This document shows, piece by piece, positions 15,979-17,869 of a stretch of 64,000 nucleotides of DNA. This DNA is from Patescibacteria group bacterium (GTDB taxonomy: Bacteria > Patescibacteriota > Gracilibacteria > UBA4473): NCBI GenBank assembly GCA_965660445.1, contig CBFIAK010000001.1, positions 288,001 to 352,000 of the forward strand, in the 5' to 3' direction. Made by a program: the position numbers and the translations under genes. The stretch's first letter is position 1; every line of letters begins with the position of its first letter. The notes below the pieces were generated by a model. It was not told the DNA's origin. It ran no database searches and worked only from the letters and a program-made list of their open reading frames with translations.

Positions 15979-16008
15979 AAAAAACCGGTTTCTTTTGAAA
16001 GAAACCGG
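15979..16008 (-). terminator. Intrinsic terminator of the orphan lipoprotein gene
   Basis: CCGGTTTC/GAAACCGG stem with a U-tract on the minus strand. Confidence 0.8.
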
Positions 16009-16028
16009 AATAGTTGTGTTTTAGAAAT

Positions 16029-16640
16029 TTAATCATTGCGAGGTTTTAATACGCCTAAGAGCATAAATTTTTCTGTTAATTCTTGTGATGCATAGATACT
16101 TAATCCGGAATTGTCTTTCGTTAAACCAAGTTCCTTTCTTAAATTATTTGGTACTTGTATTTTAACCTTATTTTGACTTTTCAGATACAATAAACGCATT
16201 TTGAATTTTTTCCCCGAACGATTTGCAACAGTTTCTATCCATAAATCACCATTTTCTTTTTGTGTAAAAAAGGCAACCACAAAATCTCCATTATCATCAA
16301 ACTCAACAATTCGAATGCATGATGATGTAGGAATTTCTACGCTCATGTGTTTAAATGATGAGATAGGATGCTCCGTAAAGTATTGAGGGGATGGTTTTTT
16401 GAAAAATAAAGCCATCTCTTTCTTTACTTGTTTTAGTTGATCGTCATGCGAAAAATCACATTCGTTTTCCCATACATCTTCTTGAAATTCATGTATTGGA
16501 AATTCCATGTCGAAATCAATACTTCGTCCATCAGGAAGTTTAATTCCTCCCACTCCTTCTTGATTATTGCTGTCTGCTTTCTTTATGTCACAAGAAATCA
16601 GAGATAAGCTAATCAAAAGGCTTAAATATATTTTGTACAT
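16029..16640 (-). CDS. Orphan putative lipoprotein
   Basis: Short signal with lipobox-like LIS-C; AAGGAG 8 nt upstream of ATG. Confidence 0.75.
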   Translation of the reverse strand: MYKIYLSLLISLSLISCDIKKADSNNQEGVGGIKLPDGRSIDFDMEFPIHEFQEDVWENECDFSHDDQLKQVKKEMALFFKKPSPQYFTEHPISSFKHMSVEIPTSSCIRIVEFDDNGDFVVAFFTQKENGDLWIETVANRSGKKFKMRLLYLKSQNKVKIQVPNNLRKELGLTKDNSGLSIYASQELTEKFMLLGVLKPRND

Positions 16641-16698
16641 ATTTTAATCTCCTTGCAATGGTTTATAAAATTAGTTTGTAAAACAACATTTATATTTC

Positions 16699-16723
16699 TA
16701 CATAAAATAAACAAGGCAGTCAA
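16699..16723 (-). promoter_or_regulatory. TTGACT-N14-ATGTA upstream motif (copy A)
   Basis: Same spacing as the copies at 17104 and 48903. Confidence 0.6.
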
Positions 16724-16941
16724 TACGAATATTTAAAAATCATAGAGATGCTCTTCCTATCATGTACACGCTACAGAATTAATTTTAGTATTTTACATTA
16801 TTTTTCCGTGATATCCTCCCTTAAAAAGAGAAAAATCTTCGCGATTTCTTTTTTCTTCGTTCGTTGTATCAAACCTTATTCGGTTCTCATCCAATCTAAC
16901 ATAAAAAATATCGATAACCGTAATGAGTAAAGATATTTTAT

Positions 16942-17018
16942 TGGTACAGGCGGAGGGATTCGAACCCCCGACACCCGGTTCCGAAGACCGGTGCTCTATC
17001 CAGCTGAGCTACGCCTGC
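16942..17018 (-). tRNA. tRNA-Arg (anticodon UCG)
   Basis: 77-nt cloverleaf GCAGGCG...CCGGT-CT-TCG-GA-ACCGG...TTCGAAT...CCA. Confidence 0.97.
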
Positions 17019-17103
17019 GTTGTGTAGAAAAAAACAAAAGAACGCTGGGATTCTAAATAAAAAAAAATCAAAATCAAATTTTTTTTTGTGATATCAAACT
17101 TGT

Positions 17104-17128
17104 TTGACTTATGGAAGGCAAGTATGTA
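17104..17128 (+). promoter_or_regulatory. TTGACT-N14-ATGTA upstream motif (copy B)
   Basis: Followed by TGCTATTTTACAAA (17140-17153) and AAGGAG (17161-17166). Confidence 0.6.
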
Positions 17129-17173
17129 ATAAATAGCACTGCTATTTTACAAATATAATTAAGGAGTGTTGGT

Positions 17174-17833
17174 ATGTATAAATACCTTGTTTGGGGGGTT
17201 TTATTTCTTTGTTCCTGTCAAAAAGAATTAAGAAAAAATGACTTGCCTCAAAACGAATCAAGTACTGATGTATTAAAGAATGGTTGTTCTGTGATATATG
17301 ATAAGCAATCACGTATAATAAAGAGTTTTATATTAAACTCTGGTAGAGAAATATCATTTTTCCCTTCTGTTCCAAAAAGAGGTTTCTTTGAACATTTTTC
17401 AGAAGGGAGATATAGAACCTCGTACTTCAACGAACTGCAAAAAGTAGAGTCGATGAAGACTTTGGTAAACCGGTTTTTATCTATGGAAGTCGGTACATAT
17501 TTTGAACCACAGAAAAATACATTCGTTGCTTTCGATGTCCTGAGTGATAATCTTCTGAGAATGGTAGTGATTGATATTAACACAGAAACAGCGGTTCATT
17601 ATTTCTTCACAATGGATGATAATCAAGTTTTTATTGATATTTTGTATGATAAAAAAAGACATATACGAAGTATTTATTATACAAATAAAACAAGAGTTAC
17701 ACTCTATGCTCATGCATGGGTAGATACACTCATATTAGCTGTACCAACATCTGCAGATATAAAGTTGATGGTGTACGCACAAAATTTATTAAAAAGTGCT
17801 GTACATCCATTACAAAAATTTTTTTATAAATAA
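17174..17833 (+). CDS. Orphan putative lipoprotein
   Basis: MYKYLVWGVLFLCS-CQKE lipoprotein-like signal; AAGGAG 7 nt upstream. Confidence 0.75.
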   Translation: MYKYLVWGVLFLCSCQKELRKNDLPQNESSTDVLKNGCSVIYDKQSRIIKSFILNSGREISFFPSVPKRGFFEHFSEGRYRTSYFNELQKVESMKTLVNRFLSMEVGTYFEPQKNTFVAFDVLSDNLLRMVVIDINTETAVHYFFTMDDNQVFIDILYDKKRHIRSIYYTNKTRVTLYAHAWVDTLILAVPTSADIKLMVYAQNLLKSAVHPLQKFFYK

Positions 17834-17837
17834 TAGC

Positions 17838-17869
17838 AAAACCTCAATAGTCTCTATTGAGGTTTTTTT
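17838..17869 (+). terminator. Intrinsic terminator
   Basis: AAACCTCAATAG-TCT-CTATTGAGGTTT followed by a T-tract. Confidence 0.85.

Follow-up and report, generated by a model that had tools for sequence, protein, structure and literature searches.

Self-contained single-gene units, each with promoter, leader motif, AAGGAG and terminator, among the orphan genes of a Patescibacteria genome

The window examined here is a 64,000-nt stretch of the genome of a Patescibacteria group bacterium (G000:C1:288001-352000; the genome has 991,330 bp in 5 contigs, 36.7% GC, and is rated 100% complete). Among species-representative genomes, the only close relative of its RpoA-like protein is encoded in a metagenome-assembled genome of Candidatus Peribacteria (59% identity), which places the bacterium in the candidate phyla radiation (CPR). 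The window carries three self-contained single-gene units, two of them on either side of a tRNA-Arg gene (Table 1). Each gene is preceded by TTGACT and, 14 nt further on, by ATGTA; each has AAGGAG 8, 7 or 6 nt before its ATG; and within 6-21 nt of each stop comes a strong hairpin with a T run. The sites at 16723-16699 (-), 17104-17128 (+) and 48903-48879 (-) are the only copies of TTGACT-N14-ATGTA in the whole 991,330 bp. A preliminary description of this sequence had recorded these sites, the -10 hexamers at 17-nt spacing, the AAGGAG elements and the hairpins correctly, together with two leader blocks, TGTTGTTTTACAAA and TGCTATTTTACAAA, that sit 10 and 11 nt after ATGTA, and had proposed a separate regulon under an alternative sigma factor or a family of acquired cassettes. 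Our results support that description in part: a true signal had been seen through a partly accidental motif. In our judgement the three genes probably belong to a class of some 30 monocistronic accessory genes, lineage-specific and spread over the genome, that are read by the primary sigma factor, carry leaders and are led by a Shine-Dalgarno (SD) sequence.

Table 1. Features of the three units and of the tRNA-Arg gene between units 1 and 2 (window coordinates).
Feature	Position	Strand	Description
Unit 1 -35	16718-16723	-	TTGACT
Unit 1 -10	16695-16700	-	TAGAAA, 17-nt spacing, TG directly upstream; the ATGTA of the preliminary description is 16699-16703
Unit 1 leader/start motif	16677-16687	-	GTTGTTTTACA, 7 nt after -10; 9/10 specified positions of GTTCTTTnACA
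Unit 1 AAGGAG	16649-16654	-	8 nt before ATG
Unit 1 coding sequence	16029-16640	-	203 aa, signal peptide, lipobox LISC, orphan
Unit 1 intrinsic terminator	15985-16008	-	10-bp stem, then T run
tRNA-Arg (TCG)	16942-17018	-	between units 1 and 2
tRNA-Arg promoter	17037-17077	-	TTGATT-N16-TAGAAT-N6-GTTCTTT; back to back with unit 2 promoter
Unit 2 -35	17104-17109	+	TTGACT
Unit 2 -10	17127-17132	+	TAATAA, 17-nt spacing, TG directly upstream
Unit 2 leader motif	17141-17151	+	GCTATTTTACA, degenerate, 8 nt after -10
Unit 2 AAGGAG	17161-17166	+	7 nt before ATG
Unit 2 coding sequence	17174-17833	+	219 aa, signal peptide, borderline lipobox LCSC, orphan
Unit 2 intrinsic terminator	17838-17866	+	13-bp stem, terminator-like on both strands
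Unit 3 distal -35	48898-48903	-	TTGACT
Unit 3 distal -10	48875-48880	-	TATTTA, 17-nt spacing, TG directly upstream
Unit 3 leader motif	48798-48808	-	GTTCTTTCACA, perfect, 66 nt downstream of distal -10, 6 nt after TGTAAT at 48815-48820
Unit 3 AAGGAG	48759-48764	-	6 nt before ATG
Unit 3 coding sequence	47895-48752	-	285 aa, signal peptide, predicted all-beta barrel, C-terminus QTGIIFRF
Unit 3 intrinsic terminator	47863-47889	-	12-bp stem

The class is visible in counts over 926 open reading frames (ORFs) genome-wide, each at least 60 aa long and taken greedily without overlap from the longest start. We called an ORF SD-led when AGGAG lies at -16 to -4 of its first start; this holds for 34 of the 926 (32 of the 34 read AAGGAG), leaving 892 others. 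A consensus promoter within 200 nt upstream precedes 22 of the 34 SD-led genes versus 68 of the 892 others (odds ratio (OR) 22, p 9e-16), a perfect-stem terminator within 70 nt follows 22 versus 65 (OR 23, p 4e-16), and the heptamer GTTCTTT lies within 170 nt upstream of 20 versus 24 (OR 52, p 2e-20). All four marks coincide in 12 genes, while promoter, motif and terminator occur together in 2 non-SD genes. As a sequence pattern, GTTCTTT-N15-45-AAGGAG-N4-9-NTG has 13 matches in the genome versus 0-3 in shuffles, and the promoter-plus-motif pattern has 23 versus 0. The genome thus holds an orphan-rich class, with the three focal genes among its members, of scattered genes that each stand alone with a promoter, a leader motif, AAGGAG and a terminator. 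The preliminary description had seen no other gene in the window with such an SD, and indeed these three are the only AGGAG-led ones among the 67 ORFs of at least 60 aa there; SD sites are also rare among ordinary genes, with only 4 of the 602 conserved ORFs being SD-led.

Conservation was judged by tblastn of all 926 proteins against the complete contig of a sister genus (G013, 1,023,206 bp), an orphan being a gene with no hit at E < 1e-5. Only 4 of the 34 SD-led genes have a hit, versus 598 of the 892 others (p 8e-11), which leaves 30 orphans in the class versus 294 outside it. Two of the four conserved members, FtsK-like and FtsE-like, bear CAGGAG or GAGGAG and probably represent chance AGGAG. 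Orphan status alone does not give the signature, because among the 294 non-SD orphans GTTCTTT is found in 7, a terminator in 25 and a promoter in 27. We ruled out that the promoter-leader modules are copies of one repeat: only 7 of 561 pairs within the class share any short similarity, versus 222 of 29,403 control pairs. Since the upstream modules are not homologous, the shared motifs look selected rather than inherited. At G000:C1:160426-162284 (-) lie two tandem SD-led paralogues of 275 and 277 aa, both starting M..D.SSSFASL.LA.LYRFDSM; as each has a promoter, GTTCTTT, AAGGAG and a terminator, a class unit was duplicated there as a whole.

The exact pattern TTGACT-N14-ATGTA proved too narrow a signature for this class. 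Its three copies in the window compare with 0.02 expected, and at least three were seen in 0 of 100 shuffles; none of the 31 other SD-led genes has it, and a regulon built on the exact motif was ruled out because these three copies are all that the genome holds. Its components are general ones. TTGACA is concentrated in intergenic DNA (104 of 295 copies fall within the non-coding 10% of the genome), TTGACT is enriched there as well, and genome-wide T and A peak 16-17 nt downstream of TTGACA/TTGACT in a T-A-x-x-x-T/A layout. Such an arrangement, TTGACW followed after 16-18 nt by TAnnnW, is a sigma-70-type architecture. Among the 43 intergenic TTGACW-N17-TA sites of the genome, ATG precedes the TA in 3 and TG in 5. 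By our own arithmetic, base composition predicts about 0.6 ATG among these 43 sites, and because the 25-nt pattern was defined post hoc, 3 versus about 0.6 makes the ATG component weak evidence. The A of ATGTA is probably chance, whereas the TG, which abuts the -10 in 6 of 22 class promoters, may assist weak -10 elements. In all three units the -35 agrees with TTGACA at 5 of 6 positions, the spacer has 17 nt and the TA of the -10 is present, with A at its sixth position. The absent final T had been taken to set these promoters apart from housekeeping ones. That trait is not distinctive, since TAnnnA (23) is as frequent as TAnnnT (17) among intergenic sites with a 17-nt spacer; a strict promoter scan of the window demands the T, so the three sites are not among its output. 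We read the 25-nt pattern as the sigma-70-type promoter of three class members that happen to share a T-variant -35, a 17-nt spacer and TG at a weak -10, with no separate recognition sequence.

Downstream of the promoter stands the second shared element, GTTCTTTnACA, of which the leader blocks of the preliminary description are degenerate copies. Intergenic GTTCTTT occurs 46 times, 21 of them before 20 different SD-led genes and, where a promoter is visible, mostly 6-9 nt after its -10; behind the heptamer follow A (20/30), C (17/30) and A (25/30) at +8 to +10. The core is not private to protein genes. Many of the 37 tRNA/tmRNA genes carry TTGACN-N16/17-TAnnnT-N6-G[CT]TCTTT, including the tRNA-Arg of the window, and G[CT]T[CG]TTT stands 6-7 nt after the -10 of many tRNA promoters in this genome. 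The combined pattern TTGACN-N16-18-TANNNW-N5-9-GYTSTTT occurs 23 times here versus 2 in the reversed control. It is found in all 24 other genomes of the family, mostly well above reversed controls (29 versus 1 in G022, 16 versus 2 in G013, 11 versus 0 in G004), and is only sporadic in the other families of the taxonomic class. In G013 the pattern has GCTCTTT where it stands before six tRNAs and GTTCTTT where it stands before a few protein genes, which have purine-rich pre-start sites. On the simplest reading, G[CT]T[CG]TTT would serve the housekeeping polymerase throughout the family as an element of the start site or of the initial transcript. A complement of GTTCTTT, or of the TCTTAAY motif described below, was not found in the 16S gene.

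This sharing of promoter and start motif with tRNA genes argues against an alternative sigma factor. The genome does encode three sigma factors of extracytoplasmic function (ECF) type, of 191-197 aa, beside RpoD, and the envelope products would suit an ECF-type regulon on TTGACT-N14-ATGTA; GAC-N16-TGTA even loosely resembles AAC-N16-CGTA. In ECF promoters the -35 contains AAC and the -10 contains CGT, and the sigma gene is usually autoregulated. The three sites have GAC and TGT instead. Two of the three ECF genes are preceded by TGTTAC-N16-CGTA and TGAAAG-N17-CGTA (G000:C1:627600-627866 and 621200-621479 (+)), which look like autoregulated ECF promoters, and TTGACT-N14-ATGTA is absent upstream of all three. 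Against the regulon also stand the number of exact copies, three and none before a sigma gene, and the generality of TTGACW-N17-TA, whose architecture the adjacent tRNA-Arg shares. On the grounds of the different ECF upstream sites and of the sharing with tRNA genes, we ruled out an alternative sigma factor for the three sites, and the proposal is hardly credible any longer, being already close to refuted.

The motif could alternatively mark a dedicated regulon, GTTCTTTnACA being the site of a start-site repressor or an RNA-binding protein that coordinates a fast-evolving secretome, for example on host contact. Consistent with this, the nACA extension occurs in the mRNA leaders and not in the tRNA leaders listed, the motif is nearly restricted to SD-led genes among protein genes (the 20 of 34 and 24 of 892 given above), GTTCTTT[TCG]ACA recurs in other genera (G005, G012 and G015), and about half of the class, 15 of 34, has a hydrophobic N-terminus. 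Yet the core heptamer keeps the same distance from the -10 in tRNA promoters family-wide, as befits a general start-site element; no candidate regulator was found, and two of the three focal genes carry degenerate copies of the motif. We regard such a regulon as unlikely.

Translation in this lineage departs from the canonical scheme. The 16S 3' end reads GGAUCAUCGCCUUU (G000:C1:143770-143860), and the anti-SD core is UCGCC or CCGCC in every family member with a readable 16S tail (loci L005-L033), whereas other families of the taxonomic class mostly keep CCUCC and two read CCUCU. The spacer downstream of 16S carries the matching complement, GGCG-type in the family versus GGAG-type elsewhere; as anti-SD and complement co-vary, the change is real and old and not a sequencing error. 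Against the 16S tail GAUCAUCGCCUUU of this genome, the AAGGAG of the units accordingly forms 5 of 6 pairs, the remaining position being an A·G mismatch, and the tail-matching form AAGGCG occurs 0 times at starts. By position the element does fit an SD: the purine-rich AAGGAG at 8, 7 and 6 nt agrees with a genome-wide motif peak at -15 to -11. Counts of AAGGAG-N5-8-ATG against reversed controls show the whole taxonomic class to be SD-poor whatever its anti-SD, with G000 (82 versus 31) and G015 (80 versus 33) among the larger relative excesses. SD scarcity has precedents close by: Table 4 of PMC10783764 places Candidatus Peribacter riflensis among the SD-scarce organisms without CCUCC, with 7% SD genes, in class iv. 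An excerpt of PMC9297842 describes bS21 as often lost in the clade.

Most other genes appear to start by different routes. With TTGnnn-N16-18-TAnnnT promoters, 41 candidate starts lie exactly 6 nt after the -10 hexamer, versus about 5-19 at neighbouring distances, a peak that we read as leaderless transcripts. A second peak is formed by TCTTAAY at -18 to -12 of starts, with CTTAA 15 times at -17 and TTAAT 23 times at -16; in the window it is seen upstream of 10922-11527 (-) and 38471-39022 (-). These 5-mers rank first for enrichment in G013 too. TCTTAAY is found within operons as well, and there its TAA can double as the stop codon of the preceding gene; it may serve this lineage as a signal for initiation without an SD. 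A leaderless-type layout is also seen in the window at 48937-48974 (+), where 6 nt separate TTGAGT-N17-TATAAT from an in-frame ATG at 48972; the GTG listed as start, at 48969, lies one codon further upstream.

Leader motif and AAGGAG could also act on each other in cis, the 5' GUUCUUU pairing with AAAGGA(G) and masking the ribosome-binding site until the leader is opened. UUCUUU and AAAGGA can form 6 pairs, one of them G·U, and folds of 29 leaders gave a summed motif-SD pairing probability that averaged 2.06 versus 1.03 for shuffled 5' octamers (Wilcoxon p 0.008), with SD accessibility at 0.34 versus 0.45 (p 0.005) and strong pairing in about 11 of the 29. The focal units themselves speak against the switch: unit 1 shows no pairing (0.01), unit 3 falls below its control (0.58 versus 1.55), and the mismatches in units 1 and 2 destroy the motif-SD pairing. 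Moreover, the motif stands before tRNAs, where there is no SD, and U-rich shuffles pair with the SD by chance, which makes this switch very unlikely in our view.

Taken together, the reading that we prefer, a genome-wide class of SD-led accessory genes, would work as follows. Each unit would have a housekeeping sigma-70-type promoter (TTGACW, 16-18 nt, TAnnnW) read by the primary sigma factor, and its transcript would most likely begin at or next to G[CT]T[CG]TTT, at the G of the motif, which is extended to GTTCTTTnACA in mRNAs. A leader of 30-130 nt would follow, then AAGGAG 5-8 nt before the ATG, putatively acting as ribosome-binding site despite its mismatch to the genome's own anti-SD, and an intrinsic terminator directly after the stop would close the unit. 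In unit 3 a second, proximal transcription start is possible. The products would be exported, two of them as lipoproteins processed by Lgt and LspA. Conserved genes, in contrast, would be translated without an SD, either leaderless (-10, 6 nt, ATG) or from TCTTAAY at about -17.

Several observations weigh against this reading. Units 1 and 2 carry degenerate copies of the motif, with 1 and 2 mismatches in the heptamer, and in unit 3 the perfect motif lies 66 nt past the TTGACT promoter; a few other units have it 13-23 nt past the -10, so that it cannot strictly be called a +1 element. The mismatch of AAGGAG to the 16S tail, together with the 0 occurrences of AAGGCG, leaves its SD function putative. 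The tests for signal peptides, lipoboxes and terminators are our own heuristics, the gene starts are crude longest-ORF calls, and the starts, leaders and expression of the units are all predicted from sequence. Replication in other genera is partial. In G015 (a 962,416-bp contig), 20 of 897 ORFs are AGGAG-led, and these are enriched in orphans (13 of 20 versus 282 of 877, p 0.003) and in GTTCTTT (4 of 20 versus 28 of 877, p 0.004), while the link to the promoter is weak (4 of 20 versus 59 of 877, p 0.046) and the association with terminators does not recur (1 of 20 versus 64 of 877). In G013, AGGAG at starts is hardly enriched (25 versus 16 expected). The full signature therefore appears largely specific to the genus of G000. 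The strict cassette pattern is likewise found 13 times in G000, 5 times in G005, 3 times in G023 and 0-2 times elsewhere; the 20 loci examined in other genera hold real ORFs mainly in G005, and many matches elsewhere are short or spurious. Some of the lineages with spurious hits may use another genetic code.

Given their narrow distribution, the units might instead be recently acquired cassettes, akin to the morons of phages, which are defined by a promoter-gene-terminator layout; phages, plasmids or sister lineages with a canonical anti-SD would be the donors, and AAGGAG a donor-type signal. Several facts fit such an origin. The 30 orphans among the 34 members have no G013 homologue, and a search of 5.8 billion proteins returned nothing but the queries for the two lipoproteins of 203 and 219 aa. 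The class is richer in A+T (median GC 32.9% versus 36.0% for other orphans and 37.3% for conserved genes), several of its genes occupy slots where the conserved neighbours are separated by only 34-550 nt in G013, and AAGGAG suits the canonical anti-SD of other families of the taxonomic class and not that of its own family. Against this, the start motif of the units is the host family's own, the GC content at third codon positions (GC3) and the codon usage of class genes are as in other genes, and relatives with a canonical anti-SD are SD-poor too. We saw neither an integrase nor a repeat nor a prophage context, and homology among the upstream modules is lacking. For the family searches we took 32 members, 30 of the 34 (leaving aside the FtsK-like, the FtsE-like and two others) plus two internal-start cases. 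Matches to phage and defence families are sparse: PHROGs gave 4 families, each in 1 of the 32 members and two of them barely (E 2e-4 and 9e-4), and PADLOC gave 2 weak single-member matches. On balance we consider recent acquisition somewhat unlikely.

The Pfam search of these 32 members recognised only NhaA, a beta-CASP RNase, a HAD hydrolase, one Por_Secre_tail and a weak cytidylate-kinase-like match. Por_Secre_tail, the C-terminal sorting domain of type IX secretion, occurs at G000:C1:792838-793740 (-) and 493833-494000 (-). A transfer link to Bacteroidota, suggested by this domain in member L116, was dropped: the domain recurs in 7 of the 24 other family genomes (G013, G015, G004, G017, G019, G018 and G021), with up to 6 per genome, and is thus a lineage trait and not a signal of transfer. 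Neither an outer membrane nor type IX secretion is otherwise indicated in this lineage. Turnover is suggested at one slot: at G013:C1:401944-402818 (-), syntenic to the unit at G000 C1:707697, an unrelated 152-aa ORF follows TTGACT and AAGGAG, which suggests that different SD-led orphans replace each other at the same site.

Predicted features of export recur in the class, with a hydrophobic N-terminus in 15 of 34 SD-led genes versus 247 of 892 others (p 0.05) and a lipobox in 5 versus 27 (p 0.005). The preliminary description had called the three focal products two lipoproteins and one beta-barrel-like protein, and the products are indeed lipoprotein-like and beta-barrel-like. It had also called the genes unrelated. 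No Pfam family was assigned to any of the three proteins and none of 40 relatives has a homologue, in keeping with that statement; the two lipoproteins, however, align at 21% identity over 137 aa (BLASTP E 0.002, a single comparison) and may be very distant paralogues. The 203-aa protein has the lipobox LSLISC, the 219-aa protein a borderline FLCSC, and for the latter the ESM Atlas offers a lead at most, all matches being below 0.9 and falling in lipoprotein or hypothetical clusters. More speculatively, the genes had been suggested to act in the envelope of a Gram-negative host. For lipoproteins no diderm host is needed, because Lgt (2 copies) and LspA (1 copy) are encoded in the genome, all above cut-off, and the two products can be ordinary monoderm lipoproteins.

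The 285-aa protein is harder to place. It has 2 homologues among 1.84 billion representatives (36% and 26% identity), was absent from the collections genome_contigs and metagenome_contigs (phage collections were not searched), and a profile of the 3 sequences found nothing in 400 other genomes of the taxonomic class. From the 3-sequence alignment AlphaFold predicts, at low confidence (predicted local distance difference test (pLDDT) 58.8), a signal helix followed by 14-15 long strands; the single-sequence model (pLDDT 31.7) is useless. Foldseek searches of the PDB with the former returned outer-membrane barrels as all top matches (best E 3e-7, 183 at E <= 0.001, template modelling (TM) score about 0.4), and among named ESM clusters those of OmpG or phage outer-membrane-protein families come nearest (0.93). 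The C-terminus QTGIIFRF resembles the consensus of the beta-signal, and its final F is aligned as F, F and M in the three sequences. Structure prediction and Foldseek thus point to a barrel, within the limits of a low-confidence model. On the other side of the ledger, no BamA was found above cut-off in the genome (the best Omp85/BamA match has E 0.006, below cut-off, with stop codons inside), nor any LpxC or TolC-type OEP. PMC6744442 holds that CPR bacteria lack an outer membrane. The product would then be an outer-membrane-type barrel of a cell with neither a beta-barrel assembly machinery (BAM) nor an outer membrane.

These pieces could be joined into a bolder picture, a separate expression channel, kept by a lineage that gave up SD/anti-SD pairing for its core genes, in which the GTTCTTTnACA leader and an AAGGAG unfit for the genome's own 16S serve a fast-evolving, largely exported accessory proteome, the barrel acting in the outer membrane of a diderm host, for example as a pore supplied by the symbiont. 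If true, this would imply SD recognition independent of the canonical anti-SD, or a leader-specific factor; we consider it quite unlikely. At the opposite extreme, if the units are only strongly expressed accessory genes, they provide a useful annotation rule and not a new system.

Two further observations concern the surroundings. Directly after unit 2, at 17857-18879 (+), lies a gene for a protein with three S-layer homology (SLH) repeats and 59% identity in G013, which we read as a cell-wall-anchored surface protein adjoining the orphan lipoprotein. A search for known RNA families recovered only two tRNAs in the window.

To our knowledge, CPR bacteria are uncultured and almost nothing is known of their transcription and translation starts. 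The present genome would combine three modes of initiation side by side, leaderless, TCTTAAY non-SD and rare SD-led, the last of which goes together with a conserved leader motif and with lineage-specific proteins that are often exported. The marks of the class offer a cheap sequence handle on accessory, possibly host-interaction, genes in Peribacteria genomes, and they make two questions testable: how AAGGAG acts with a UCGCC anti-SD, and what role an outer-membrane-type barrel has without an outer membrane. A limited literature search, supplements such as S2 and S4 of PMC10783764 excluded, turned up neither a promoter or leader motif described for Peribacteria nor any account of orphans forming an SD-led class.

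Among known systems, porins of the OmpF/OmpC/OmpG type are the nearest likeness for the 285-aa product, with its signal peptide, some 14-15 antiparallel strands, C-terminal GIIFRF and barrel matches in Foldseek; it differs in its low-confidence model, the lack of a Pfam family, its 2 homologues and a genome devoid of BamA, LpxC and OEP. The units as a whole resemble phage morons: each is a single gene between conserved genes, AT-rich, with its own sigma-70-type promoter and terminator and often a surface or secreted product. Unlike morons, they lie in no recognisable prophage, show no mobility signature and use the start motif of the host family, so that of the defining traits of morons the own promoter and terminator and the deviating composition were found, whereas a prophage location or evidence of transfer was not. 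With genomes of mixed leaderless and leadered initiation, the categories modelled by GeneMarkS-2 (PMC6028130) and treated by Zheng et al. 2011 (PMC3160421), this genome shares the peak of starts 6 nt after the -10 and a leadered minority with a ribosome-binding site; here, by contrast, the leadered SD class consists almost entirely of orphans, has a conserved 5' motif and bears an SD that mismatches its own anti-SD. Closest of kin in translation are the SD-scarce prokaryotes without CCUCC of PMC10783764, which the UCGCC/CCGCC tails and the mere 34 AGGAG-led ORFs among 926 recall. Section 21 and Table 4 of that paper do not say which genes keep an SD, whereas in this genome the SD-led genes are orphan, self-contained units with a shared leader motif.

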